DNA from: a virus
Taxonomy: Duplodnaviria > Heunggongvirae > Uroviricota > Caudoviricetes
Reading direction: 5' to 3' (one strand)
IMG/VR virus record: IMGVR_UViG_2609459795_000003
Length of the DNA stretch: 29,443 nucleotides
The notes below the pieces were generated by a model. The model saw nothing but the letters and a program-made list of their open reading frames with translations, did no database searches and was not told the origin of the DNA. Made by a program: the position numbers and the translations under genes. Below, in pieces: positions 307 to 22,856 of the stretch (its first letter is position 1; each line of letters begins with the position of its first letter).

Positions 307-891
307 TTACTCCGGATATTTAAAAATTACGTAGGTATGCGACGGGCAGAGTTTGTTAAGCACACATTCGACAACTGTGTCGCCCCAGATACGCAGTGCG
401 GAATCACAGGGATCGCCACATGTCATCCAGGTGGTGTTGGTGGCGGCTGGCATGTTGACCTGCCAGTAATACCGCCATTCAGGCGCGTTCACAGCGTCAG
501 TACAGGCCGATGAGCAGGTGAACGTGCTTTTGTCGTATCGCGTGATGGCGGCATCTGGTCTGCCCAGGGCAGCAAGCTGTGCAAGATAAAAATCCTCGTT
601 GATGCCACCCGCCAGGTTAACCTTCGCATCCAGCCGTTGCTGACGCTGGCGAAGGGTCTGTGTCCCTGCGGGATTACATTCATCCGGCAGGCCGCACAGA
701 CGCTCCCAGCGATTTATCAGTTCGGTGGTGGTGCGCGGATCCAGCTCCCGCATCAGGGCATCCGCACGCTGATGAACACGAGTTAATGACGGTGCCGCAC
801 CGGCAATCGCCGGATCGCTGGCTGACCACGCCGGACCGGGCGGCAGCAGCGCCGACAACAGACGGATGTAATCATCGTTTGTCACGTCCAT
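307..891 (-). CDS. Mu gp48-like tail/baseplate protein (DUF2313/YmfQ-like)
   Basis: 194-aa ORF directly downstream of the baseplate J-like gene; sequence and position match the small protein that follows gp47 in Mu-like tail modules (family recalled from memory). Confidence 0.55.
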
Positions 892-1940
892 GAAATCGTC
901 CCCAGAACTACCAGCTCATTTTTTGCAATGGAGATATTGTCCGCTGGTGCAAGCAACTGATGGCTGTATTCCCCGTTCGCACCGGAAATCGCTTCACTGA
1001 TACGCGACACCTTCAGTTCTCCCTGCGGATAACCATCACGCAGCAGGAACGAACGCAACTCGGCGGTGATGGCAGCCCGTATTTCGGGTGTGTCCGGCGT
1101 CACGCGGATATGAAAATCCACAGTATGCGCCACCGGCCTGAACACATACAAATCAGAGCCTGCCACCGGGGCCAGTGGCCCGATATGTTGTCTTGCCGCC
1201 GTTTCCGTTGATTCTTCCGGAATGGGATTAATCAGGTCACTGCCGGCAATCATCACACCGACAGTCCCCGTTCCCATCCAGTGACGGTATGTCCATGCGC
1301 GGGTAATGCCGGGCACTTCTTTAGCCCAGACGACATAGTCCCCGTCAGCCCCGCCCTGCGGCGTCCAGTAATACCGCTCAATGACGCGGGCGCGCCACGT
1401 TTCGAGATCTTCAGTATCGAATCCGCCAGTCAGGGTATCTGCCACACCGGAAGACGGCAGACCATTCACCGGCGTGACCAGGATTAATGCCGTACCGTCG
1501 TCAGCGTTACCGACCGCGCCTGCAGTTGAGCAGGCGATCGGCACGCGCAGGACTCCACCTGAGCTGGTTGCATCAGAAGTTGCCGTGTACTGAACCAGGT
1601 CATCGCGCTGAATAACACTCCCGGCGGTCACCTTCAGGCCATCGCTGACACCTTCCCAGCGCATATACCCGCTGGCAGACGTGGCCCCCTTGCGCGGACA
1701 CCGTTTCATCGCAGCATGTCGCGCCAGCCAGGACTCATCGCACAGGTCAGGCAGCATGTTCATTGCCAGATAATCGATGTAACCGTAAACCGTATGCAGC
1801 GCCGCCGCATACACCTTTGCCCGCACGTCTTCATCCATGCGCCGGAGCGTGTCGCTGACGTCCAGCCTGGCGAATAAATCGTTACGGAGCATACTGATAT
1901 TTTCTGCCAGCGTCGGGCGCTGAAATTCACTGTTCGCCAT
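882..1940 (-). CDS. Baseplate J-like protein (Mu gp47-like)
   Basis: 352-aa ORF, overlapping stop/start with neighbours, in the conserved Mu-like order V - gp46 - J - gp48. Confidence 0.7.
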
Positions 1941-2900: not shown

Positions 2901-3979
2901 CAGAACGGGTCCTCCTGTACTCTGGCTTTTTTCTTTTTCCGCGCGCCGGGGGCTTCGGGTTCAGGCAGATAAGCATCAGGTGGGCCGACACGGATTTCCG
3001 TCAGGGTGCCATTCTGGTCCTGAGTAAACGTGACTTCCGAGACAAGCAGTTCGGTATTGTCGAAACCACAGACCGGATCGAAGACAATCACCCGCTGGTT
3101 GGGCTGCCACAGCGTACCGTTACCCTGTCGCCAGCCCTGCACCACATAGGTGGTTTCATCCGTCCGCGCCGCCCGTTGTCGGGCTTCAAAGTCAGCACGC
3201 GCAATACAGCCTGCCCCCGTAGCCTGCCCTGTCTGCCTGATATACATCGGACGGTAACGGGCAATAAATGCATCCTCTGTGCGGGCCCGCAGCGCGGTGG
3301 TGGTGGCCTCACCGAAATCATCGTCGTTTCCGGCACGCTGCCCCGCCACCTGGTAAACTGAAAACCGCTCCCGGATACTCTTCTCCGTATCACAGGAAAG
3401 GATGTTTTCCCCAAGTACCAGCGCGGTATGTGCCCGCGTTGAGCCAATACCACCAATCACCAGCCTGCCGTGCGGGTCGTCATAAGCCAGCGCCTGCTGC
3501 TGACCGAGTATTTTGTTGATCACCTCGATCACCGTTTCACCGTGATCAGGCTGGACATCCGGAATAACACCCGACGGCGCATCGCTGTTCACCACCTCAA
3601 TGCCGAAAGGCGCAGCAAGCGCCTGCGCAATCTGTACCAGCGATCGTCCGTTAAACTGTGTCGGTTCGGCTGCACAGTCAATCAGGTCAGCAGTCAGACT
3701 ACGTCCGGCAATACCGGTGCTGACCGAACGGGCATCGTAACGAACGGGGGTCGCCTCCACCCAGCCGGTGATCACCAGCTCATCACCAATCAGCACTTCC
3801 ACTTTTGAACCATTTTTAATGCGCGGCTGAAGCGTGGTGATACCCTCATCTCCCGGCCACTGGCGGGTGATCCCCACGCTAAAACCCCGCCCCAGCCGTT
3901 CAATACCGGCACCGATGCGCACCGATGTCCAGCCATTCCACTCTCGGCCATTTACCCGTAGCGTGACGTTATCGTTCAT
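2900..3979 (-). CDS. Mu gp44 (P)-like baseplate hub / tail protein
   Basis: 359-aa ORF following the DNA-circulation-protein gene with a 4-nt overlap (3976-3979); Mu-like synteny. Confidence 0.6.
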   Translation of the reverse strand: MNDNVTLRVNGREWNGWTSVRIGAGIERLGRGFSVGITRQWPGDEGITTLQPRIKNGSKVEVLIGDELVITGWVEATPVRYDARSVSTGIAGRSLTADLIDCAAEPTQFNGRSLVQIAQALAAPFGIEVVNSDAPSGVIPDVQPDHGETVIEVINKILGQQQALAYDDPHGRLVIGGIGSTRAHTALVLGENILSCDTEKSIRERFSVYQVAGQRAGNDDDFGEATTTALRARTEDAFIARYRPMYIRQTGQATGAGCIARADFEARQRAARTDETTYVVQGWRQGNGTLWQPNQRVIVFDPVCGFDNTELLVSEVTFTQDQNGTLTEIRVGPPDAYLPEPEAPGARKKKKARVQEDPF

Positions 3980-5304
3980 TGCACTGGCACCTTCAGAGGG
4001 ATCACCGGCACAAAGCCGGGATGCGTAATGGCATTACGCCGGATAATGTCCGCGTCACGCGCCGCGTTATCAAACCAGGTCGCCGCCAGCACCAGCGCGG
4101 GTAAAACCTCATCCGGCGTGCGCTGAATGATCCGTGCAGACTGTTCAAGGCGCGTGTTGATATCCGCATTCAGATCTGCTTTCACCCGGCGCAGCGCCAG
4201 AAACAGCGCATCACTGGTTGTACGGGACAACTCCTTATCAGTTGCCGTATTCAGTGTGTCGCGAATGTCGGTCAGTTCTTCCCACGTTGGCAGGTCAACC
4301 GTGTTTTTTACCGCCGGTGCATTGTTCAGCACCGGATGCGTGACGGCAGGCCAGCCGGAGCTCTGCGCGGGTGTTGTTGACTGCCCCACTGCGGCATTCT
4401 GCATCACCGCAGAAGTTGTTGGCGCAGGCAATCGGGTAACGGCATACGCCGCTTCGCTGATTGCAGTCGTACGAAGGGTGCTGGCAACCATGTTACGCTG
4501 CTGCGTCGCTGTGGCGGTGGTTTTACTGTCCGTTTTCCAGACGCCGCGCGGTTGCAAATCGCTGCCGAGGCTGACACCAGAAAGCGTTTTGATCATGGTG
4601 ACCAGGTCGCTGGCGTTACCATAAAGGCGTTTCCCGGTACGCCACATTTTCTGCACCTGCTCAACGAAATTTTTGCCTGACGATGGCGGCGGCAGAAGTA
4701 CCGAGATATCCCCCTGCAACAGCCTGGCGGCATCCGATACGGCAGAATCCACCACTTTCATCGCATCAGAAACATACCCCAGCATTATGCTGGCATTACC
4801 GATAACGTCGTTCTGCACGAAATCCGCCACACCATCGATACTGAAACCGCTGAAGCTGTCACTGATGCAGTCATCCAGTGCAGAACAGGATGACATCAGC
4901 GTCTGCGCCGTCGCCGCACCTGATGTGGGGTAAGAGAGTTCTCCTGCTTCGACAAACTTCAGGTCAAAGCGGACAATACGCCCTTCACTTTTCGATGTGC
5001 TGACCCGAACTTCCCCGTCAACACAGACTTTCAGCTCACCATATGTCGGGTGGACAAGCGTGCCGGGACCTGGTTTATTCAGCGCTTCAATCAGGCGATC
5101 GCGCTGGTCAAAGCAGTCATCTCCCACCACATAAGCCGTGATGGACGGGCGAAAAGTGATTTTCCCCAGGTCTTCGGTATAGGGTTTGTCGCGGTTCGGG
5201 TATTCATGTGTTTCCACACGGCGACCGGTTCCCGCACTTTCTTCTTCAACCTTAAACGGCACGCCGCGAAATGACGCGTCCTGAAGCCTGTCTTTCCACG
5301 TCAT
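3976..5304 (-). CDS. DNA circulation protein N-like tail protein (Mu gp43-like)
   Basis: 442-aa ORF downstream of tape measure; N-terminal region MTWKDRLQDASFRGVPFKVEE...THEYPNRDKPYTEDLG matches the conserved N-terminal domain of this family as I recall it; SD GGAG 5 nt before the ATG. Confidence 0.65.
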   Translation of the reverse strand: MTWKDRLQDASFRGVPFKVEEESAGTGRRVETHEYPNRDKPYTEDLGKITFRPSITAYVVGDDCFDQRDRLIEALNKPGPGTLVHPTYGELKVCVDGEVRVSTSKSEGRIVRFDLKFVEAGELSYPTSGAATAQTLMSSCSALDDCISDSFSGFSIDGVADFVQNDVIGNASIMLGYVSDAMKVVDSAVSDAARLLQGDISVLLPPPSSGKNFVEQVQKMWRTGKRLYGNASDLVTMIKTLSGVSLGSDLQPRGVWKTDSKTTATATQQRNMVASTLRTTAISEAAYAVTRLPAPTTSAVMQNAAVGQSTTPAQSSGWPAVTHPVLNNAPAVKNTVDLPTWEELTDIRDTLNTATDKELSRTTSDALFLALRRVKADLNADINTRLEQSARIIQRTPDEVLPALVLAATWFDNAARDADIIRRNAITHPGFVPVIPLKVPVQ

Positions 5305-5987: not shown

Positions 5988-7820
5988 CTACCAAAATCGG
6001 GTATAGCCAACATCGTGATTTATATCAATGCCACTGGAGCGTGTTTCCGTAACCCGCATACCTGGTGGCATATTTATAAATGATACCTTGATCTCACCAT
6101 CAACTTTTGGCGCGGTAGCTTTATTAATCATGAAGGGATTCGGACCTGTGGCACCGGAGGCGTTGTTTGCCTGAGCCGGATCCACCTCCGGATAAGGAGT
6201 GTATCCCCGTGGCGGTATTCCCGTCCCATAAGCATCATAAGCACCCGCGCCCCACTGCGCCGAGTTAATGGCATCGACCGTGTCACCGGAACTGTCGGTA
6301 AACCATTCAATAATCGGCTTCAGCTTATCCCACATATCCTGAAACCACTTAACAACCGGTCCCCAGTTATTGATCACCATCCCCAGCGGCGACCAGGCAA
6401 AAACCTTCTTCAGAAGTTCCCAGCCAGCCTCAAAATAAGGACTAATGGTTTCCCAGAGCTTCTTAAAATAAGGTCCGACAACATCCCAGTTAGTGATAAT
6501 TAATCCCGCAGCTAGGGCAATCGCCGTCGCAATCATGCCAATCGGCGTCATCGACATGATCCTGCTGACGATACTGATGGCACTGCCCACGCCCATCAAT
6601 CCCAGTTTCAGAATCGCAAGACCGGCAGCAAGCCCGACGACGCCGCGAATAACCCGGGGATTTTCATCCGCAAACTTCGTGAATTTTTCCCCTAACTCCC
6701 CCAGCCATTGCGTGATATTTTTGACGTCACCAGAAAATGCGCCGCCAATAGCCGCAAGGCCGTTAGTTGCGGTCCCCGTCATTGCCTCCCACAGGTTGGA
6801 CAGCGTACCAAGCTGGGCCTGAACACGTTTATTCAGGCTGGCCTGTTTATTCATCTTCTGCTGGATCTGATCGTAATCATCCTTTCCTTTATCGATCAGA
6901 GCATTGACCACCTGAAGGGTTTCGGCATCATCACCAAATATTGCCTTAAGTACACCGGTTCGCTTAACGTCGGTCAGTTTTCGCAGCTTTGCCAGTTGCC
7001 TGAACATGTTATCAAGACCGCCAAAACTCCCTTTGCCGTCAGTAAAATCGAGCTGTACCCCGAGTTTCTGGCGGGCCATAACTTTATTAACGTCCCTGAT
7101 TTTCTTAACGCTTAATCCGGACTGGATAACTTTTCGCAGGGCATTACCTGCCGACTCCCCGTTCATCCCCATCTGATCCATCATGACGCTGATGGGGGCA
7201 AGGCTCTGTGCAGCCTGAAGACCGTCCTTGTTCACCATCTTCAGAACAGAACTGGTTTTAGTGAAGAAGGACAACATGTTGGTATCGTCAACGCCCAGAT
7301 AAAACGCCTTCTGGATAGTGTCGAACAGCCCCATCATGTCTTCTGACGCCGTTCCGGTAGCATCCTGCATCTTTGCAGCAAACTCAGCAGCCGCTTCCGG
7401 TGTTTTTTTCAGTTGTACCGCAAGATAAGCTGTCGCTTTACCCACACCGCCAAGAATATTTTCTGCCGGGATCCCCTGACGCACCAGCATCTGCATCATG
7501 TTCTGGAAATCAGCCGTTGTACCGGGTAGCTGGTTACCCAGGCCAATAGCCAGTTTATTGATGTCCTGAAAGCTCTTTCCGACCTCGCCGTTCGCATCCA
7601 TCATGGCGACTTTCAGCCCGGTGGCGGCGTTTTCCTGATCGGCATAAGATTTCAGGGAAAGCGTCAGACCCGCTGCCAGTCCGCCACCAAGCGCCAGCCC
7701 ACCCTGTGATGCTTCTTCCGCCTGGCGTTTAAATCCCCGGATTTTCTTTTGCATTTTCGACAGCGCGGGAGAAAGTCTGTCGACACCGGTGATCAACGCC
7801 TTAAGCTCAAATTCAGCCAT
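5988..7820 (-). CDS. Tail tape measure protein
   Basis: 610-aa ORF, Ala/Gly-rich with predicted coiled-coil and hydrophobic segments, directly downstream of the frameshifted chaperone pair and upstream of N/P/V baseplate genes. Confidence 0.8.
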   Translation of the reverse strand: MAEFELKALITGVDRLSPALSKMQKKIRGFKRQAEEASQGGLALGGGLAAGLTLSLKSYADQENAATGLKVAMMDANGEVGKSFQDINKLAIGLGNQLPGTTADFQNMMQMLVRQGIPAENILGGVGKATAYLAVQLKKTPEAAAEFAAKMQDATGTASEDMMGLFDTIQKAFYLGVDDTNMLSFFTKTSSVLKMVNKDGLQAAQSLAPISVMMDQMGMNGESAGNALRKVIQSGLSVKKIRDVNKVMARQKLGVQLDFTDGKGSFGGLDNMFRQLAKLRKLTDVKRTGVLKAIFGDDAETLQVVNALIDKGKDDYDQIQQKMNKQASLNKRVQAQLGTLSNLWEAMTGTATNGLAAIGGAFSGDVKNITQWLGELGEKFTKFADENPRVIRGVVGLAAGLAILKLGLMGVGSAISIVSRIMSMTPIGMIATAIALAAGLIITNWDVVGPYFKKLWETISPYFEAGWELLKKVFAWSPLGMVINNWGPVVKWFQDMWDKLKPIIEWFTDSSGDTVDAINSAQWGAGAYDAYGTGIPPRGYTPYPEVDPAQANNASGATGPNPFMINKATAPKVDGEIKVSFINMPPGMRVTETRSSGIDINHDVGYTRFW

Positions 7821-7995
7821 GTGTGCGTTTCTCCTGCTCTATCCTGTTTGCCTGACTGACCAGCAAGGGAATTTCACTGATCGGCATATTCAGCAATTCG
7901 AAAGGATTAATGCGCCAGTAACTGGCGCAGTCAAAGAAGCGATCAGTGAGGTATTCAGCCGTCAGGCCTGGAGGAAAAAACCGGCCACAAGCCAC
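7813..7995 (-). CDS. Tail assembly chaperone, -1 frameshift extension (fusion product spans 7813-8231)
   Basis: ORF in the -1 frame relative to 7962-8231, overlapping it by 34 nt; reads ...FFPPGLT... across the slip site; stop overlaps the tape-measure start. Confidence 0.5.
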   Translation of the reverse strand: MACGRFFPPGLTAEYLTDRFFDCASYWRINPFELLNMPISEIPLLVSQANRIEQEKRTHG

Positions 7996-8231
7996 GCCGC
8001 TGCATTCAGGTCTGCCGGAGACATCTGGTCGACAGAGTTTTGCGGCACTTTCGCCAGCCGCACAATGTATTTCGATACCACATGCGCCAGAAGTCTGACT
8101 GACTCATCCTGATTCATCTGGTAGGGATACCCCAGCTCGCGGACATCTTTCCCGGTGGGCTCATCAAACTCAAGTACGGAGAGTGTCTCGCCATGAGCAG
8201 TAATCGGTTTCTTTAACTCAAGCTCTTTCAT
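7962..8231 (-). CDS. Tail assembly chaperone (upstream frame)
   Basis: 89-aa ORF between tail tube and tape measure; ends ...AGFFLQA* with a slippery heptamer in its last codons. Confidence 0.6.
   Translation of the reverse strand: MKELELKKPITAHGETLSVLEFDEPTGKDVRELGYPYQMNQDESVRLLAHVVSKYIVRLAKVPQNSVDQMSPADLNAAAWLVAGFFLQA
7974..7980 (-). other. Slippery heptamer T TTT TTC (programmed -1 ribosomal frameshift site)
   Basis: Minus-strand codons GGT TTT TTC CTC CAG GCC TGA; the heptamer is in X XXY YYZ register with the zero frame and the -1 frame is open downstream. Confidence 0.55.
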
Positions 8232-8587
8232 TACTGGTAATCCCCTTCTTCACCGTGGAACTCAAGATCAACCGTGCCTTCTTCGGCATTATGGTTCGCT
8301 TCGCCGTGCAGCCAGGCAGACGACAGTACATAGACCTGACCGTTCGCCAGCTCGGCAGTGATGGTCATCTCATCAGACGAGGTGATTTTGCTCACCGGAA
8401 AATTCTTCGGCACCTTGAAGGTCCCTTTGACATAGGGCGCACGGTGAGTTTCCTTGCGGTCCACTGAACCGTCCAGGCCGATGATGTCATCATTGACCGT
8501 CCTGTTCATGGGCACCTCAATGCCGCCGGTCAGCGATAGCTGCTGACCGTCAATTTTGAAATAACAGGTTCCCCCGATACGGGCCAT
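8231..8587 (-). CDS. Tail tube protein (Mu gp40-like)
   Basis: 118-aa ORF immediately after the sheath gene (stop/start overlap at 8587); size and position typical for contractile-tail tube. Confidence 0.7.
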   Translation of the reverse strand: MARIGGTCYFKIDGQQLSLTGGIEVPMNRTVNDDIIGLDGSVDRKETHRAPYVKGTFKVPKNFPVSKITSSDEMTITAELANGQVYVLSSAWLHGEANHNAEEGTVDLEFHGEEGDYQ

Positions 8588-10083
8588 TATGAAGACTCCT
8601 CTGAATACTGAAGACGGAACTGGTTAACCACGGCAAAGACACGCAACTGGTTAACATAGTCAGGCGGGAACAGCGTGTTCAGGCGGTTCGGATCGCTGGC
8701 ATCACGCTCCACAACCAGGTACTGCTTAAACAGTTCGTAGTTTTCCACGATCCCCGCACGCTCAAGCTGACGGTAGGTTGCCAGCAGTTCCCCTTTGATC
8801 ACCGCCGGGGTGACAATCGCCTGACCGGGACCAAAGCGGGTACCGTCACTGGCAAGCTTGTGACGCCCGTACTTACTGGTAATGACGGATTTCAGTTTGC
8901 GCAGTACATACGCGCTGGTATGCAGTGTCTCACTGTCGAGGTAGCTGTTATCCGCAACCCCGTAAGCGTTTTTCCTGTACGTGGTGACATCACGCTGAAT
9001 GCGCAGTACCCCGCTTTCGACATACGCCGTTGCCACGCCATGAGACAGCAGGGTCTGTTGTTCGGTCATCGTGAACCGTTTCCCCTTCGGCGCAGGCAGC
9101 ATACCCACCAGCTCACCGGTCTGCGTGGGACGTGCCGGATCGTTGCGAATAAACACCGCTGCGCGGGCGGTACGGCTTGCCGCCAGTTCGTCGGCAGGCG
9201 TCTGGGTCTCTTTTTCGTACCCCGCCAGGGTAATGTGCTGCTGGTTAAACTGGTCACCTGCGGTCACCAGTTCTGACAGCGTGCCGATCTTTGCCGTATA
9301 CACATGACCATACAGCTGACGCGCATAGCTCCAGCGACCGCTGGTATCGTTCATCTCGGTCACCAGCGTGTTAACGGAGGCCGTGTCGTTGAACGGCAGG
9401 CCGATATAATCAAACGGCTCATCCGCCATTGCAGCCACCGCGCCGGTGAGAACCGGAGCACCCGTTCCGGCGGTACCCGTCGCCACGGCAATCTGTACGC
9501 CCGCTGGCAGCACTTCGCCCCCACCAAAGCCGTAGTAATTGAGGCTGACAGGAATTTCATTCCCGCAAAGCCCCTTATGACGCGCGGTCAGTGTGACCAC
9601 ACCTGCCGAAGATGAAGCCGTAAACGGCAGGGCCGGAACGGCATTGATGGCATCTTTGATACTGCTGGCAATCGTCGTGACGTTATCGCCGTTGGTCACC
9701 GGAGCCTGCACGCGGGTACGTCCCACATAGACATTCACCGTGCCGCTTTCGGTTGCTTCCCCGGTCACCGTCAGCGTAACCGTTGCCGCCGCGCCTGTGG
9801 CTTCCGGAACGGCAATCACATACAGCTCACCAAACGGGTCGGTCTGGCGATAAGCCTCGACCATACGCGCCAGCTGACTTCCCGCACCACAAATCTGGCG
9901 TGCATAGTCTGCCGACGGCATCAGCACCAGACTGTTGGCAACAATCTCTGCACCGTTACTGGCATGACCAATCAGCAGCGATGCTCCGCTGTCCTGTGCA
10001 GTATTCGCCGCCTGGTTATCCATTTCCGCATAAAACAGCGGAACCAGCGTATTCGACGGAATGGTGTTAAAGCTTATCGTCAT
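8587..10083 (-). CDS. Tail sheath protein (Mu gp39-like)
   Basis: 498-aa ORF followed by the tube gene; canonical sheath-tube-chaperone-tape measure order. Confidence 0.8.
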   Translation of the reverse strand: MTISFNTIPSNTLVPLFYAEMDNQAANTAQDSGASLLIGHASNGAEIVANSLVLMPSADYARQICGAGSQLARMVEAYRQTDPFGELYVIAVPEATGAAATVTLTVTGEATESGTVNVYVGRTRVQAPVTNGDNVTTIASSIKDAINAVPALPFTASSSAGVVTLTARHKGLCGNEIPVSLNYYGFGGGEVLPAGVQIAVATGTAGTGAPVLTGAVAAMADEPFDYIGLPFNDTASVNTLVTEMNDTSGRWSYARQLYGHVYTAKIGTLSELVTAGDQFNQQHITLAGYEKETQTPADELAASRTARAAVFIRNDPARPTQTGELVGMLPAPKGKRFTMTEQQTLLSHGVATAYVESGVLRIQRDVTTYRKNAYGVADNSYLDSETLHTSAYVLRKLKSVITSKYGRHKLASDGTRFGPGQAIVTPAVIKGELLATYRQLERAGIVENYELFKQYLVVERDASDPNRLNTLFPPDYVNQLRVFAVVNQFRLQYSEESS

Positions 10084-10237
10084 CGGTGTTCACCTTTTTA
10101 TTCACGCGCCGGATATCACCAGCTGCTTCACGGCGCAGCCAGTAGTTGTTCTCGTCAACATTTCGCCCTTCGGCGGGCAAAAGGTCGCTGCGGGCAGGGT
10201 CAGGCACTGACCGCCCTTTAACAGGTTTCACAAACAT
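10067..10237 (-). CDS. Small hypothetical protein between gp37-like gene and sheath
   Basis: 56-codon ORF found by hand translation (MFVKPVKGRSVPDPARSDLL...NTDDDKL*), below the ORF-track size cutoff; fills the gap between neighbours and overlaps the sheath start. No RBS evidence. Confidence 0.25.
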   Translation of the reverse strand: MFVKPVKGRSVPDPARSDLLPAEGRNVDENNYWLRREAAGDIRRVNKKVNTDDDKL

Positions 10238-10245
10238 GAGGATCC

Positions 10246-10806
10246 TCAGGAAGGAATGGTTATTTCTGTGTGATGTTCGATATCGCCGTCAGGCCCGTTA
10301 CCGGGATCGAGATAATCAACATCAATCGCCAGCGTTTGCAGTTCATCCAGACTGTTCAGATCATCCTGCTGGCGGGTATCGTCTTCAGTCAGCTCGCTGA
10401 TGACCGAAAAATCGAACTGATAAATCAGCTCATGACGATTCAGATCCAGCAGCGTGCCGCCGTCATAGGTAATCGGGTTACCGCACGCCTCCGGGTTCCA
10501 GCCCAGCAGAGCCTTAAAGAGCATCTGCCGGACATCGTCCACCACATCATACGAGGCAAACTGACCGCGCTCATCACGCCCGTTACTCAGTATGACAATC
10601 ACGGAGAAACCCTCTTTCAGCGCCTGCCAGTAGTCGGTCTGGCTTTTGTTTTCTCCCGGAGAATCATCACCCGGTACAACATATGCCGCCGGGAGTTTCA
10701 GCTTTCCGACCTCCGGCAGATTTTTGAACTGGGCCGCACCTGCAACCCGGTTTTCAAAATACGGACAGCGGGCACGCAGTGCAGCAATAACAGGCGTCAG
10801 TTTCAT
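10246..10806 (-). CDS. Mu gp37-like protein (putative tail completion protein)
   Basis: 186-aa acidic ORF immediately upstream of the sheath region; 4-nt overlap with the upstream gene. Confidence 0.45.
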   Translation of the reverse strand: MKLTPVIAALRARCPYFENRVAGAAQFKNLPEVGKLKLPAAYVVPGDDSPGENKSQTDYWQALKEGFSVIVILSNGRDERGQFASYDVVDDVRQMLFKALLGWNPEACGNPITYDGGTLLDLNRHELIYQFDFSVISELTEDDTRQQDDLNSLDELQTLAIDVDYLDPGNGPDGDIEHHTEITIPS

Positions 10807-11309
10807 CTGTGTCGTCGCTCCGGCTTCAGTGATTTACGCAATTCCCGCGCCAGAAAATAGCGTGTCCAGCTGCGGTTCTTTTCAAGCGTTTCCATCATGA
10901 AGTTATTACGTGGAGCCAGTCGCCAGCCGCTGCCACCGGATGCACCACGATGATGGCTGCGACGACGCTTTGCCCCTCGCCTCACTCCATAGAACAAAAA
11001 AGCCGGATAAAAATCACCAGTGATACGGCGGTTTCCCTCTCCATTACGCTGGTTAGGGGCTATACGTGCCATAAAACCAGGGCGATGTTTACTGGCTCTG
11101 GGTACCATGTAACCAATCGAACGAGCCAGGCGTCCGGTCTGATAACCGGGGTTTTCACCCGGTGCCGACCGCGCACGGCGCATCACCAGCCGACGGGCAT
11201 CACGCATATGACGCTGACCAATCGTGACAAACGCCCGCCGGACACGGGCGCGGTTAAAGCGCATCTCCGTGGGCTGCTGAAAATCAACGTGCAAAAAGGA
11301 AGTCGCCAT
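10803..11309 (-). CDS. Putative neck / virion morphogenesis protein
   Basis: 168-aa arginine-rich ORF between head-tail adaptor and tail genes; true start probably an internal Met because the 5' end overlaps the upstream gene. Confidence 0.4.
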   Translation of the reverse strand: MATSFLHVDFQQPTEMRFNRARVRRAFVTIGQRHMRDARRLVMRRARSAPGENPGYQTGRLARSIGYMVPRASKHRPGFMARIAPNQRNGEGNRRITGDFYPAFLFYGVRRGAKRRRSHHRGASGGSGWRLAPRNNFMMETLEKNRSWTRYFLARELRKSLKPERRHR

Positions 11310-18321: not shown

Positions 18322-18738
18322 ATGGTTATGCTCGTAAAGGACGCCCTGATGACAAATAACTACATGAATGATTTCCTCAAATACTCACAGCCATATGTTC
18401 CAAAGGACTACAATCTTGCAAATGAATTTCATAGACGCCTTATATGCTGGATAAATGATTTTCACCGTGAACTTGAAGAAGAGTATGAGGTAGGAGGACA
18501 ACTAGCTAGCTTTGGTAAAAACATTGAATTTCATTTCACAGACATAAGCTACTGGAATCCATCATTAATTTCTTTCATTGGTACTCTGGAGGATGGCAGT
18601 CCTGTAGAACTTGTTCAGCATGTATCTCAAATAAATGTCCTGCTAATCCGAAAAAAACGCTTATGCTTAGAGACCCCTAAAAGACCGATTGGGTTTGCTG
18701 ATTGGGGTGAATACGACTCCTTTAAAGGAGATAATTGA
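18322..18738 (+). CDS. AT-rich plus-strand moron: hypothetical soluble protein
   Basis: 138-aa ORF, opposite orientation to all flanking phage genes; visibly AT-rich. Likely start is the ATG at 18349 with AAGGA 7 nt upstream. No hydrophobic segments; family not recognised. Confidence 0.55.
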   Translation: MVMLVKDALMTNNYMNDFLKYSQPYVPKDYNLANEFHRRLICWINDFHRELEEEYEVGGQLASFGKNIEFHFTDISYWNPSLISFIGTLEDGSPVELVQHVSQINVLLIRKKRLCLETPKRPIGFADWGEYDSFKGDN

Positions 18739-18999: not shown

Positions 19000-19252
19000 C
19001 CCAGGCTCCTTTTGTTGTCTCTACCCTACGTTCTGCAACGGCTTCAGTAGCAGCTGCACGTTCTTCAGTGCGTTGCTGGTCCGCTTTTGTTTCTGCGATA
19101 CTTGTACCGCGTGATTTACCCAGACCAAAAGCACCTGCAATTGCAGCCAGCACAGCAACAACCAGGCCGATAATCATTTCAAGTCCCATAGTGACCTCAT
19201 ACCAGTGCGGCTTTTGCTTTGGCGTAACGTTCACGGCGGTCTTTAATGCCAT
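18920..19252 (-). CDS. Putative i-spanin (Rz-like)
   Basis: 110-aa ORF (likely starting at an internal Met) with one N-terminal TM segment (MIIGLVVAVLAAIAGAFGL) and a charged, helical C-terminal part; directly after the endolysin. Confidence 0.4.
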   Translation of the reverse strand: MALKTAVNVTPKQKPHWYEVTMGLEMIIGLVVAVLAAIAGAFGLGKSRGTSIAETKADQQRTEERAAATEAVAERRVETTKGAWDVQQTVNHLPDDDVDRELRENFTRKT

Positions 19253-19811
19253 TCTGTCCGCCGTTAATAATCTGCGTTACACGTTCCACGTCACCCGAAT
19301 ACATCAAGCAACCGCGTAACGTGAAGTACCACGCCGCCGAACGGGCCGCATGTCGCTCCTGCGTTAGCAATTCTGGTGTATTGACAAGGTCAAGTTTCAG
19401 CGCCGCACCACATTTGGTGTAGTTCTCACGGCCAGTAATTTGAAGCAGGCCACGACCGCGATATTTCCAGCCGTCACCCTGGCTGTTATTCCCCATGCGG
19501 TCACCGTAAACCAGATTGGCTATTTGCGGCTGGTGAGCGACCTGTTTACCATCGACACGCCCCAGCATTTCGCACTGGTACGGCGTCAGACGCTTACCAA
19601 AGGTTTTCTTCAGCCCTTCAACCGAGTAGTTAAAACTCTCTGCCAGCGAAGTAAATCCTGCAGACTCATGCCCGACTTGTGCAATGAACATGGCCTGATC
19701 ATTAACTGCTGTAATACCAAACTCTTTCATTGCCGCATCAATGTGCGGAAACCAGCGTGCAGAAACATCGGCGCTGATACCAGCCGCCTGCTGAAATTGT
19801 GATTGGTTCAT
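19197..19811 (-). CDS. Endolysin (glycoside hydrolase family 19, chitinase-like)
   Basis: 204-aa ORF after two membrane-protein genes; sequence resembles GH19-type phage endolysins as I recall them (e.g. ...FIAQVGHESAGF..., ...GRGLLQITGRENY...). Confidence 0.7.
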   Translation of the reverse strand: MNQSQFQQAAGISADVSARWFPHIDAAMKEFGITAVNDQAMFIAQVGHESAGFTSLAESFNYSVEGLKKTFGKRLTPYQCEMLGRVDGKQVAHQPQIANLVYGDRMGNNSQGDGWKYRGRGLLQITGRENYTKCGAALKLDLVNTPELLTQERHAARSAAWYFTLRGCLMYSGDVERVTQIINGGQNGIKDRRERYAKAKAALV

Positions 19812-20092
19812 TAGTGCCTCAGATGGTCAACCAGACGTGCCACATTGCCTCTGACGGCGACCAGCACGGACAGGAAAATAATGTTGGCCACGATAGTGGC
19901 CCACGATGAATAAGGGTAGATACCGCACAGATACGCCAGCGGTACGGCGCTATAAATGACCGTAAGCAGCCACGCTAAGCGAGATATCCACGGTCGATGT
20001 CTGGAGTCGCCACGACGATAAAACATCAGAGTAATAACAACACAAGCACATAACAGCGCATTTATAGTTGCTGTCGGGTCATTTAGCTCCAC
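19811..20092 (-). CDS. Small multi-TM membrane protein (holin or antiholin candidate)
   Basis: 93-aa ORF with three hydrophobic segments, stop/start overlap with the endolysin gene. Confidence 0.45.
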   Translation of the reverse strand: MELNDPTATINALLCACVVITLMFYRRGDSRHRPWISRLAWLLTVIYSAVPLAYLCGIYPYSSWATIVANIIFLSVLVAVRGNVARLVDHLRH

Positions 20093-20531
20093 CTGAACCT
20101 CCCCGGCGCGTTATGAGCGCCACCAGCGAGCCGATATCCTGATTATTCAGGAACGTCAGGATTTTAACGGCTAAAGCAGAGACGATTACGGCACCAATAG
20201 CATCCAGAGGTTTATCACTGTATCCGGTCAAGTTCGCCAGCTTGGAGCCAACCAACCCAGAGCAAAGGATCCCGGCAATATATGACACGATAAAATATGC
20301 TAGTCGGCGCGATGCACTCAGATCTGCTGCTGTTGCTATGTAGAATACAGCCCCTGCAAATGCGCCAAATACAACGCCGTAATCAGTTCCGGTCAGCAGT
20401 CCATAAATACTAGCGCCCGTTAGGGCTCCACCAGCTAACCCTGTGCCGGAAATCGGATCGGACATTAGCCACCTCTTATTGCAGTGAGTCCTCTCAGAAA
20501 TAGAAATGAGAGGAATAAAAAAGGCCACCAT
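20079..20531 (-). CDS. Putative holin
   Basis: Gly/Ala-rich multi-TM protein upstream of the endolysin; probable start is the internal ATG at about 20465 (MSDPISGTG...) preceded by AAGAGGTGG. Confidence 0.55.
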   Translation of the reverse strand: MVAFFIPLISISERTHCNKRWLMSDPISGTGLAGGALTGASIYGLLTGTDYGVVFGAFAGAVFYIATAADLSASRRLAYFIVSYIAGILCSGLVGSKLANLTGYSDKPLDAIGAVIVSALAVKILTFLNNQDIGSLVALITRRGGSGGAK

Positions 20532-20540
20532 TTGGCAGCC
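20517..20540 (-). promoter_or_regulatory. Degenerate palindrome GGCTGCCAAATGGTGGCC plus T-run after the 268-aa cargo gene
   Basis: Shares the half-site GGCTGCCAA with the perfect palindrome at 21546-21563; followed on the minus strand by TTTTTT. Could be a weak terminator and/or a second operator. Confidence 0.35.
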
Positions 20541-20573
20541 ATAGAATTGATGTAATTATAACTAATTCATTAA

Positions 20574-21380
20574 CTATTTCTTAATGATGCTATTTAACAT
20601 TTCTAATGCAAAAAGCAACATGGAGCTAATAAAATACAATATAACCGCACTGGCAATCGCTCCAATTATAGCCTGGACACTCCAGTGAAAGTAATTTTTA
20701 CCATTAATAACAAACTTAACACTAGGAAACAAAAAGTCGATAAGCTTAATTATTAATGGAATAGCAAAGCTCCATAAGTTCGAAAACAAAATAAAGATAC
20801 AAATAAATGATAAAGCAAATGCACCATCGATTGATAGTTTTGGCGCCAGTTTTGAGGCTGTCCATAAGCTAAGCAAAAAGCCAACTGTCACACCTGAAAT
20901 CTGGATACTTAACATAGTCCAAGCTGTTCTAAAAAATCTAAATTTATTTTTGCACTTGTTAATTAAATCCTGAATCGTAATCCATAACGAGTCAACCCAC
21001 TCATTATCTTCCGATGCTACAATCATTGTGCTGCTATTTGAATTCCTCTCATCAATTCGTAGCTCCATCCAAGATCCATTCATCCTGTTAGACTGTCGAC
21101 TTTGATAAGTTTCAATAGTAAAAATTATTTGATCAATCCTAGTGGCCTGTCTAAAGTATTTCACAAGCTCACCGATAGAATCAACTTTATACCCCTTACC
21201 ATCGAACAAAATAAAAAAAACACATTGAGCACAAACTTCCCTACTTTCCTTTTGAGCTTGCTCATTCATTTTAACGCAGCGTTCGACAATTGCCGTGCTT
21301 AAGCTAATCAAGCTATCTTCATTTATAGAAACACCTGAAATATTCTTGCTTCTGTAAAAATATGACACTTTCGATTCCAC
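20574..21380 (-). CDS. AT-rich cargo protein: soluble N-terminal domain plus C-terminal 3-4 TM helices, unknown function
   Basis: 268-aa ORF, visibly AT-rich; hydrophobic segments in the last ~110 aa. Track start is GTG at 21380 with no convincing RBS, so the true start is uncertain. Confidence 0.55.
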   Translation of the reverse strand: MESKVSYFYRSKNISGVSINEDSLISLSTAIVERCVKMNEQAQKESREVCAQCVFFILFDGKGYKVDSIGELVKYFRQATRIDQIIFTIETYQSRQSNRMNGSWMELRIDERNSNSSTMIVASEDNEWVDSLWITIQDLINKCKNKFRFFRTAWTMLSIQISGVTVGFLLSLWTASKLAPKLSIDGAFALSFICIFILFSNLWSFAIPLIIKLIDFLFPSVKFVINGKNYFHWSVQAIIGAIASAVILYFISSMLLFALEMLNSIIKK

Positions 21381-21511
21381 TCCGCACCAGTCTCGATTTA
21401 GCGCAGGTTAACATAACCACTTCATTGGTAGAAGAAAAGAACTCTTCTTGTCAGAAAGCTACTGTGATATCCCTAAACCTGCAGATGATACAGAACAAAA
21501 TTTAAGCATCA

Positions 21512-21563
21512 ATTGTAGGCGATTTTAAATTCACTTTACAGTTTAGGCTGCCAATTGGCAGCC
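21512..21563 (-). promoter_or_regulatory. Perfect 18-bp palindrome GGCTGCCAATTGGCAGCC adjacent to a candidate promoter for the 268-aa gene
   Basis: Palindrome at 21546-21563; on the minus strand it is followed after 5 nt by TGTAAA (21535-21540), a 17-nt spacer and TACAAT (21512-21517). Confidence 0.4.
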
Positions 21564-21577
21564 GATTGAAGCAGAAA

Positions 21578-21847
21578 TCAATGAGTGCTCATCGATGAAT
21601 TTTTTTCAGCGCCAATCTCACTCAAAAAAGCAAAACCTTTTGACGTTATCTCATTAGCAATCAATCCACCTTCGGCAGATTTGCTTCGTATAACATCGAT
21701 AAAACCTATATCAGCAAGATCTGAAATAGCAAAGTTAACCTCTTTTGCTGAGAGATGAGGTAATGATGCAGCCTGAATTCTAGAATCCTTTGGCTGCAAT
21801 TCATTCACTCGACGTAGTATTTCAAGATGGATAGAGGTCAGTTTCAT
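21578..21847 (-). CDS. AT-rich cargo protein: small putative winged-helix/HTH protein
   Basis: 89-aa ORF with strong RBS (AGGAG, 6-nt spacing) and an upstream extended -10; alternating hydrophobic/charged pattern consistent with a small DNA-binding fold (inference). Confidence 0.5.
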   Translation of the reverse strand: MKLTSIHLEILRRVNELQPKDSRIQAASLPHLSAKEVNFAISDLADIGFIDVIRSKSAEGGLIANEITSKGFAFLSEIGAEKNSSMSTH

Positions 21848-21884
21848 AATGTTCTCCTGTTTTTAATGTTGTTTTACAGAAAAC

Positions 21885-21893
21885 ATTATAACA
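21885..21893 (-). promoter_or_regulatory. Extended -10 promoter element TGTTATAAT upstream of the 89-aa cargo gene
   Basis: Minus strand TGtTATAAT about 35 nt upstream of the 89-aa ATG; no good -35, as is common for extended -10 promoters. Confidence 0.45.
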
Positions 21894-21920
21894 CATTGAT
21901 TTTGATGTAGATTGAATAGA

Positions 21921-21953
21921 AAAAAACCATAAAAAAACCTCGCAATAGCGAGG
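21921..21953 (-). terminator. tR'-like Rho-independent terminator downstream of Q
   Basis: Minus strand: CCTCGC-TATT-GCGAGG hairpin followed by TTTTTTTATGGTTTTTTT, about 110 nt after the Q stop. Confidence 0.65.
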
Positions 21954-22061
21954 TCGTAAAAATTGTTCAACGATAGATACACAAGCCCCATCGTTGAGAA
22001 AATCTTATCCATATTTTTTGAGAAATACAAGTATTATGTCGTTATCTTCGGCGAAAATCGC

Positions 22062-22856
22062 TTATCTCGTCACCCTTCTCAATTGTGCTTCAGCGTAAGC
22101 TTCCTCCTGCCAGCACTTTGTAACCAGTTTATCAATGACATCTGCATATCCTTTGTACCACTGATAATCCGTCAGGTCTGGTACCAGCTTCTGGACATGA
22201 AGCCGCGCCAGTGTGGTTGGTAAACGGCTAAACCGGTTTCCACTGCAACGCCCACAAATCTTATAAACAGGCGTGCCATGAAGCCGGGTTCTTTTTTCAT
22301 CCAGGACAATACCTTTACCCTTACACCCTCTGCACGCGGTGCTGACTTCTCCCTTACCATGGCAATGCTGACATAGTTCCTTCACCCACTCTTCCTTGAT
22401 AACAGATTCCCCGCTTCTGGAGTGTTTCACCACTTCGCGCAATACATTATGAAATCCAGTACCAGCACAATGCTCACAGCGAGCCTTACTTGCCGCAGAC
22501 CTGGAATAATCAGCAAAGGCAAAATTCACAAGGTAAGGGATGATCTGTAACCGGGTTTCTTCACTCAATTTGTTCAATGTCGGGTTATCCAGTGCCATCG
22601 CGTAATTGAGCAGACCTTCAATCGCAAACTGAGGATCCTGAACACCAACTTTTGCCAGGAATAAGGCAAACCCAAGCGGTGCTTTCGACTGCACCATCCC
22701 CTGCGCAGCCATCACATCCGTAATCGTTAAACCACCTGAGCCTGTCGCCGGTGCGTCATCGCTCAATTTTGGAGATTTTGGGGAGTAATATTTTGGTAAG
22801 GCTTCAAGGTTCATGCTCGTTCTCCACTTACGCCAGCACGCCAATTGCCAGCGCAC
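22062..22856 (-). CDS. Late-gene antitermination protein Q
   Basis: 264-aa ORF (probable start at MNLEALPKYY, about 22814) with Cys/His zinc-binding motifs (CEHCAGTG ... CQHCHGKG ... CRGCKGKG ... CGRC), immediately upstream of a terminator and the lysis genes. Confidence 0.7.
   Translation of the reverse strand: MRWQLACWRKWRTSMNLEALPKYYSPKSPKLSDDAPATGSGGLTITDVMAAQGMVQSKAPLGFALFLAKVGVQDPQFAIEGLLNYAMALDNPTLNKLSEETRLQIIPYLVNFAFADYSRSAASKARCEHCAGTGFHNVLREVVKHSRSGESVIKEEWVKELCQHCHGKGEVSTACRGCKGKGIVLDEKRTRLHGTPVYKICGRCSGNRFSRLPTTLARLHVQKLVPDLTDYQWYKGYADVIDKLVTKCWQEEAYAEAQLRRVTR

Follow-up and report, generated by a model that had tools for sequence, protein, structure and literature searches.

We analysed a 29,443-nucleotide (nt) stretch of DNA from a virus of the Caudoviricetes (IMG/VR record IMGVR_UViG_2609459795_000003; the whole stretch is called the window here) and describe a block of two AT-rich genes, encoding proteins of 89 and 264 amino acids (aa), that is located between the gene of the antiterminator Q and the holin genes. 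The two genes are mobile independently of each other and do not form a conserved pair. As the best explanation, which in our judgement is evenly poised between right and wrong, we propose that they are morons independent of each other and stacked in the variable Q-to-holin slot of an e14/HK97-like lambdoid prophage of Escherichia coli, and that the larger product, a predicted membrane protein, is a phage-exclusion or abortive-infection (Abi) factor expressed in the lysogen.

Phage morons, in the sense in which Hendrix and Juhala used the term for HK97 and HK022, include lambda bor and lom, HK97 gp15 and, in Stx phages, stx in the Q-S slot. In lambdoid prophages it is the Q-to-holin slot that carries Shiga toxin genes, and cargo in this position is amplified on induction. 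The two genes of the window resemble morons in being present or absent at one position among close relatives, in their foreign composition, in having promoter-like signals and a terminator, and in occupying the stx slot. They differ in that two of them are stacked, that their products are unrelated to characterised moron products and that their transcription in the lysogen is a prediction. Regarding the terminator expected of a moron, the 264-aa gene is followed by a hairpin with a run of six T residues and the 89-aa gene by a hairpin only.

The block has the following anatomy:

21893-21885, minus strand: extended -10 element TGTTATAAT of the 89-aa gene, read from the sequence
21578-21847, minus strand: gene of the 89-aa winged-helix-like protein (first moron), with sub-threshold Pfam matches to DUF2513 and HTH_45
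21546-21563, minus strand: perfect 18-bp palindrome GGCTGCCAATTGGCAGCC, a 7-bp GC-rich hairpin 15 nt past the stop codon of the 89-aa gene, without T-run
21413-21405, minus strand: TGnTAAYCT block, candidate extended -10 element at the left end of the membrane-protein unit, conserved in the phage lineages
20574-21368, minus strand: gene of the 264-aa inner-membrane protein (second moron; RefSeq WP_001459463)
20517-20540, minus strand: intrinsic terminator that separates the membrane-protein gene from the holin gene (hairpin 20540-20523; 7-bp stem and T6, found by consensus scan)

The two genes do not travel together

A first-pass annotation, made from the sequence of the window, had taken the two genes for a module of regulator and effector. 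The 1.7 kb block is present in 41 of 5426 complete E. coli genomes, always on the chromosome and always in an e14/HK97-like lambdoid prophage (ymfL, ymfR, P27-family terminase). Both genes, annotated as hypothetical in RefSeq, occur in the same 41 genomes, and the open reading frames (ORFs) are intact in nearly all of them. Since all 41 copies are at least 99% identical, they represent one evolutionary event, and the pairing is seen in this single clonal block alone, which does not bear out the idea of a module. In one of these genomes (E. coli XB2, NZ_CP162303) the block lies in the remnant of a prophage that is heavily degraded and has many pseudogenes, yet both cargo genes and the lysis genes are intact there.

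Relatives of the membrane protein at 77%, 61% and 51% identity are encoded directly upstream of holins in other lambdoid prophages, whose Q and lysis genes differ. The relative at 77% identity (L002; also L030 from Hafnia/Citrobacter) is found upstream of a holin_8 gene, with an N6_N4 methyltransferase gene as 5' neighbor and another type of Q. The relative at 51% identity (L005/L006) precedes a cassette of holin_2_1 and lysozyme behind yet another type of Q, and is itself preceded either by an unrelated ORF of 66-73 aa or by this ORF and a methyltransferase gene. More distant relatives, at 31-41% identity, come from Methylobacter, Gallionella, Thiobacillus, Methyloversatilis, Nitrospira and Bacteroidota and have no neighbor in common. 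The 13 loci from species genomes, whose hosts include these taxa as well as Moraxellaceae, Thiomicrorhabdus and Methylophilaceae, likewise share no neighbor. Flanking genes at the non-phage loci include sdh genes, ABC transporters, chorismate lyase and the biotin operon. The 89-aa gene is missing next to every relative more distant than the clonal copies, and relatives of the 89-aa protein in turn occur without the membrane protein.

The membrane protein in integron-like cassettes

Several environmental homologues carry sequence signals of integron cassettes. The motif GTTATGCATC is found 24-27 nt 5' of the start codon in L013, L014, L016 and L017, and L008 has GTTATAC at the corresponding place. 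A GCATAAC sequence overlapping the stop codon is found in L014 and L017, and behind it stands an imperfect palindrome whose last bases are GTTAGCC or GTTGAGG. The complete site reads GCATAAC-CTGTC-GTTCGAG...CTCATTC-GTTAGCC (59 nt) in L014 and GCATAAC-CCTGC-GGTCAAC...GTTGAGG in L017, and in L008 a 126-nt site (ACATAAC...GTTATAC, -62.7 kcal/mol) is located directly upstream of the gene. The layout in L014 and L017 matches the R''-L''...L'-R' order of attC sites, with the cores RYYYAAC (R'') and GTTRRRY (R') and a single ORF between sites. These attC-like sites were recognised by folding and hand inspection; a script with a strict attC pattern returned no sites, real attC sites being degenerate.

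The surroundings of the L014 gene (positions 7500-10836, Gallionella sp. UBA4121) consist of small ORFs on the same strand, which encode an integron cassette protein of family PF21648 (the upstream gene), the 267-aa family member, a tautomerase, a thioesterase-like protein and proteins without assignment, and several of them are each followed by an attC-like site of the form RYYYAAC-CCTGC-xTTCGAG. No integrase was found within the flanks fetched, and L014 may be an attC cluster without integrase. The family members in beta- and gamma-proteobacteria are one-ORF integron cassettes or solitary islets. A cassette with exactly one ORF speaks for a membrane protein that needs no dedicated partner.

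The copy in the window has no attC site at its 3' end and carries an intrinsic terminator there instead. The window and L002 become homologous at a GTTATG motif (GTTATGTTAAC in comparison with GTTATGCTAAT), which resembles the left end of a cassette. This start would fit a descent of the phage copies from a captured cassette, without proving it.

Structure and conservation of the 264-aa protein

The larger ORF had initially been taken as a gene of 268 aa. The reading frame is as described, and its start codon is probably GTG at 21368, which gives 264 aa, as judged from the RefSeq call and from the aligned N-termini of relatives at 39-51% identity. In an AlphaFold model of the 268-aa ORF, calculated from 8 sequences, the N-terminal domain is confidently predicted (predicted local distance difference test, pLDDT, of 83-90 for residues 11-140) with the order beta-alpha-beta-beta-alpha-beta-beta-beta-alpha, followed by long helices at 153-178, 187-217 and 230-267. 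Hydrophobic segments are found at about 150-173, 183-206 and 233-256. The second and third transmembrane (TM) segments are clear by hydropathy; the first stays under the threshold of 1.6 and rests on the AlphaFold helix. Of the initially described soluble N-domain with three to four hydrophobic helices we thus find an alpha/beta domain of about 145 aa and three helices. A K/R-rich segment, NKCKNKFRFFR, precedes TM1 and suggests that the N-domain is cytoplasmic.

An exhaustive profile search yielded 229 cluster representatives (50% identity clusters) at E<=1e-3, 126 of them at E<=1e-30, and among the best 150 of the 229 nearly all are full-length with 255-270 aa; word-indexed searches had returned few relatives. 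In an alignment of 73 diverse members D56 is invariant, and D7, R54, G59, A75, E79, Q156, F188, N197, W199, P215 and F219 are at least 90% conserved. The alternating residues R54 and D56 on one strand suggest a functional face. Between the window copy and L002 (77% identity) the ratio of non-synonymous to synonymous substitutions (dN/dS) is 0.17. All three phage-borne copies of the gene have a GC content of 0.34.

No match to the 264-aa protein was found in Pfam, NCBIfam or PADLOC, and the 89-aa protein gave sub-threshold matches only, in agreement with the earlier statement that neither belongs to a characterised family. In PADLOC-DB 2.0 neither protein has a match at E<=1, and PHROGs places both in families of unknown function only. 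A sequence-profile search of the PDB with the 264-aa protein gave no match and no transporter or enzyme signature, and Foldseek searches with the AlphaFold model against PDB and BFVD returned nothing at E<=1e-3. CYTH/triphosphate-tunnel proteins recurred among the weak Foldseek matches and were set aside because their low probabilities made them of no use. The membrane protein has no homologue in isolated-phage genomes or on plasmids, and IMG/VR yielded nothing beyond the E. coli copy and a single relative at 77% identity. A literature search with the accessions, the PHROG identifiers and DUF2513 retrieved no relevant report.

The 89-aa protein

Both ORFs lie on the minus strand according to the ORF list (89 aa, 21578-21847; 268 aa as called, 20574-21380). 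The 89-aa gene has the ribosome-binding site AGGAG 6 nt 5' of its ATG, and this strong site and the extended -10 element are both present where they had been placed at first. The protein belongs to phrog_32916, a family without known function, and its sequence pattern of helix, helix, recognition helix, wing and C-terminal helix fits a winged helix. A single-sequence AlphaFold model was unusable (pLDDT 54). Likeness to DUF2513 and to small MarR/PadR-like winged-helix proteins consists of a weak match spanning the full length of the protein (21.8 bits, E=2.4e-4, profile positions 9-81 of 100); with a Pfam cut-off of 29.6 bits this score is below the gathering threshold, and DNA binding is putative. 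A 117-aa MarR-like protein encoded next to the membrane-protein gene in L008 was considered as a relative and rejected, as it is the TumA-like partner of a TumE toxin.

A tblastn search led to two Klebsiella phages, which differ in holin type and each encode a homologue at 37% identity; in both, nothing but this gene lies between the Q-like gene and the holin gene. In the Klebsiella module TGGTAAAAT is found at the place equivalent to TGTTATAAT, after a tR'-like terminator of its own and before a strong ribosome-binding site, and a canonical terminator is located at the relative position of the window palindrome. The Klebsiella module repeats the layout of promoter-like element, gene and terminator.

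Promoter candidates and hairpins

It had been suggested that each of the two genes has private signals, and promoter-like elements together with a hairpin or terminator were found for each. The specific promoter first proposed for the large gene, a -35/-10 pair beside the palindrome (TGTAAA-17-TACAAT), did not hold up, being weak, specific to the window and unconserved. A better promoter candidate is the TGnTAAYCT block, which all three phage lineages (the window, L002/L030 and L005/L006) have 34-36 nt 5' of the start codon, while the DNA further upstream is unrelated. This block may represent an extended -10 element, what is left of a cassette end, or both.

Both the perfect palindrome (21546-21563) and the related sequence at 20523-20540 are present, and as hairpins they share 84% identity. 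Three copies of the half-site GGCTGCCAA occur in the window (0.41 expected), a number that none of 100 shuffled sequences reached. The first palindrome folds into a hairpin of -16.2 kcal/mol (z=-3.0). The second starts 33 nt past the stop codon of the large gene, and the same hairpin (GGCTGCCAWATGGYGGCC and T-run) also stands 5' of the holin gene in L002 and in L011, the latter having a different cargo gene of 261 aa and neither the 89-aa gene nor the membrane-protein gene. Because of this occurrence in L011 the sequence at 20523-20540 is not a private operator of the window module, and what had been described as a degenerate operator copy is a canonical intrinsic terminator. More generally, the palindromes are better read as hairpins at transcript ends than as operators. 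For the palindrome at 21546-21563 a terminator-type hairpin is the simplest reading, and insertion of the downstream unit may have displaced its T-run. The 89-aa protein might still bind this palindrome, although we found no support for such binding.

The slot and its borders

The slot is bordered by the following elements:

22062-22814 (ORF to 22856), minus strand: Q antiterminator gene, upstream border of the slot (Pfam Antiterm E=5e-53, phrog_127)
22002-22030, minus strand: candidate late promoter pR', TTGTAT / 17-nt spacer / TAAGAT, inferred
21926-21955, minus strand: tR'-like intrinsic terminator (stem 21955-21936; 8-bp stem and T7; -13.7 kcal/mol, z=-4.6)
20079-20465, minus strand: Phage_holin_8 holin gene, downstream border of the slot (Pfam E=1.5e-34)
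19811-20092, minus strand: Phage_holin_3_7 holin gene (Pfam)
19197-19811, minus strand: GH19 endolysin gene (Pfam)

The genes of this region of the window all lie on the minus strand. The AT-rich two-gene block between tR' and the holin gene lies where it had been reported, and the drop in GC content is clear, with 0.335-0.383 over positions ~20400-22000 and 0.50-0.57 on both flanks. At the identical locus RefSeq annotates an antitermination protein of 753 nt. The block of the pR' candidate, which scores under the threshold of the promoter scan, is kept in the window and in the sister prophage L012, both of which have the same Q end and tR'. Sequence comparison shows that the homology of these two stops just past the T-run of tR', which sets the start of the cargo at about 21925.

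Sister prophages with the same backbone hold unrelated genes at this position, which agrees with the initial view of the block as cargo of foreign composition in a variable slot: L012 and L011 share Q/tR' or the holin leader with the window, yet they carry an unrelated gene of 85 aa or 261 aa. In L012, an E. coli sister prophage, the 85-aa coiled-coil-like cargo protein (3846-4103) has no Pfam or PADLOC match, and its gene begins directly after tR' without a promoter-like insert. The 261-aa cargo protein in the same slot of L011 (3860-4645), also from E. coli, is soluble and likewise has no Pfam or PADLOC match. In addition, the slot of L005 contains the PADLOC candidate pair PDC-M11A/B (436-1849, minus strand; E=1e-131 and 6e-49) beside the relative of the membrane protein, and the slot of L002 also has a Type II-like methyltransferase gene. 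The Q-holin slot behaves like a hotspot in which defence and anti-defence genes collect.

Further observations concern the edges of the block. The holin ORF as called (20079-20531, 150 aa) extends upstream across the terminator; the real start, which is also the RefSeq start, is the ATG at 20465 (128 aa). E. coli and Klebsiella phages that have this type of holin share the leader before this ATG (CTGAGAGGAYTCAC...GCAAT). A 17-nt imperfect direct repeat (14 of 17 positions match; AATGAATTAGTTATAAT and AATCAATGTGTTATAAT, minus strand) at 20555-20571 and 21885-21901 brackets the whole cargo, and one of its copies contains the extended -10 element of the 89-aa gene. This repeat could be a recombination scar or a chance feature of AT-rich DNA. 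Rfam and tRNA scans of the cargo region were negative. A second AT-rich patch (GC ~0.39-0.40) is found just downstream of the lysis genes at 18349-18738 on the plus strand. It corresponds to a gene of the DUF6173 family on the opposite strand, flanked by the Rz region and the HNH/terminase genes (coordinates carried over from the identical RefSeq locus) and looks like another moron.

A possible anti-phage function

We suggest the following working of the two units. The first unit (~21925-21546) would comprise the extended -10 promoter, the strong ribosome-binding site, the 89-aa protein and the terminal hairpin, and the second (~21416-20541) the TGnTAAYCT promoter-like element, the 264-aa protein and the terminator, which would insulate the holin gene. 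From these signals we infer that in the lysogen each gene could be transcribed from its own promoter, with transcription ending ahead of the lysis genes; once the prophage is induced, polymerase modified by Q would pass through all three hairpins. The cytoplasmic domain of the 264-aa protein would sense or bind something, with the three-helix membrane domain as effector, and phage exclusion, in our view the likeliest role, might be brought about by blocked genome entry or by abortive membrane permeabilisation.

Single-protein membrane factors for exclusion or abortive infection are known from prophages and other elements, such as HK97 gp15, P22 SieA, T4 Imm and lactococcal AbiZ. Defence cassettes with TM helices, Deva and BrcWGS21, have been described from integrons (bioRxiv 10.1101/2024.07.02.601719). 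Like all these, the 264-aa protein is a small, self-sufficient inner-membrane protein by prediction, is carried by mobile elements and has integron cassettes among its relatives. It shows no similarity to them in sequence or fold, and its cytoplasmic domain of about 145 aa has no counterpart there. The membrane effectors of signalling defence systems (Cap15 and S-4TM of CBASS, SLATT, the TM effectors of Pycsar) likewise combine a soluble domain with few TM helices and could disrupt the membrane, whereas the 264-aa gene has no cyclase or partner gene, its product has no Pfam match to S_4TM, S_2TMBeta or SLATT, and it occurs as a one-ORF cassette.

A role in conflict or defence is favored by the vehicles on which the family is found (integron cassettes, moron slots and islets rich in toxin-antitoxin (TA) or Abi genes), by the slot-mates and by published screens. 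Genes in the neighborhood of family members include GmrSD_N+HEPN and TumE/TumA in L008, SocA_Panacea in L010, AbiEii, Fic and an integrase fragment in L027, and a Gp49/HTH_37 TA pair in L018. Of the integron cassettes of unknown function that had been tested, about one third protected against phages, and among these resistance cassettes about one third have TM helices, one acting at genome injection (bioRxiv 10.1101/2024.07.02.601719). Judged from such sequence-based evidence, an anti-phage role of the 264-aa protein is a serious possibility, with chances somewhat short of even. More tentatively still, the protein may represent a new family of single-protein membrane-acting anti-phage factors common to integron cassettes of environmental proteobacteria and the Q-holin moron slot of enterobacterial prophages, in which a cytoplasmic TBP-like sensor domain with a conserved R54/D56/E79 face would gate the three-helix effector and the phage copies would stem from a captured cassette.

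Several points weigh against the proposal of two independent morons with an anti-phage membrane protein. The promoters are consensus matches, and the number of sites from a generic promoter scan does not exceed that in shuffled DNA. In the AlphaFold model the membrane half is of low confidence (pLDDT ~50). The 73 family members have no meaningful Pfam or PADLOC match, the single PADLOC hit being a weak match of one member to a 2TM effector (E=0.006). Most environmental loci are flanked by housekeeping genes, and a PADLOC scan of 61 neighbor proteins gave only matches that resemble generic ABC-ATPase cross-matches; an enrichment in defence islands is anecdotal and is not claimed here. Finally, the hairpin of the 89-aa gene has no T-run, so both genes may be co-transcribed in E. 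coli, and a regulatory link between them, limited to this clone, may exist.

The coupling of both genes in one defence or toxin-like module, with the 89-aa protein controlling the membrane effector via the GGCTGCCAA palindromes, would be in line with their adjacency on the same strand, their equal AT-richness, their constant company in the 41 E. coli genomes, the perfect 18-bp palindrome between them and the possible read-through of its hairpin. We nevertheless regard it as improbable, because the 41 copies count as one event, no other lineage of the 264-aa protein has this partner and the cassette copies are single-ORF, the 89-aa family is found alone, and the second "operator" is a terminator that precedes the holin gene in L011 as well, where both genes are absent. 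Nor do we give much credit to the membrane protein as a lysis accessory, i.e. an antiholin, holin modulator or lysis-timing factor expressed with the late operon. Its gene does stand immediately 5' of the holin gene in the distinct prophage backbones examined, even where the slot holds several cargo genes, the product is predicted to be a multi-pass membrane protein, and Q read-through would express it late. Yet the bulk of the family diversity is non-phage and comes from integron cassettes and chromosomal islets that have no lysis genes in their neighborhood, a terminator separates the gene from the holin gene, and close relatives of the prophage lyse without the protein. Pfam and PHROG searches gave no match to holin, antiholin or other lysis families for the 264-aa protein, and its structured cytoplasmic domain, as predicted, is unlike small holins.

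Somewhat more credible, and in our view still unlikely, is a factor for lysogenic conversion or host fitness that has nothing to do with phages and acts in envelope stress, ion or small-molecule handling or signalling, with the N-domain binding a ligand. The patchy occurrence across phyla and the location in integron cassettes, TA-rich islets and moron slots fit conflict genes better, and transporter or enzyme signatures were not found. Least probable, we consider, is that the block is neutral hitchhiking DNA or consists of decaying genes without current function. The rarity of the block (41 of 5426 E. coli genomes) and the copy in a degraded prophage remnant would be expected of such DNA, but the dN/dS of 0.17 between copies at 77% identity, the constant length and architecture over 229 cluster representatives and the intact ORFs in nearly all 41 genomes speak against it.

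For the interpretation of prophage cargo our results mean that adjacency of genes at the level of a clone does not make a system, and that the Q-to-holin slot collects independent, self-contained morons. The 264-aa family consists of a single gene of about 0.9 kb with its native signals, extends across phyla, is under purifying selection and is invisible to current annotation and to the libraries of defence finders. It rides on two kinds of mobile elements, both of which are known reservoirs of anti-phage genes. If it is indeed a defence gene, it would document cassette traffic between integrons and prophages.

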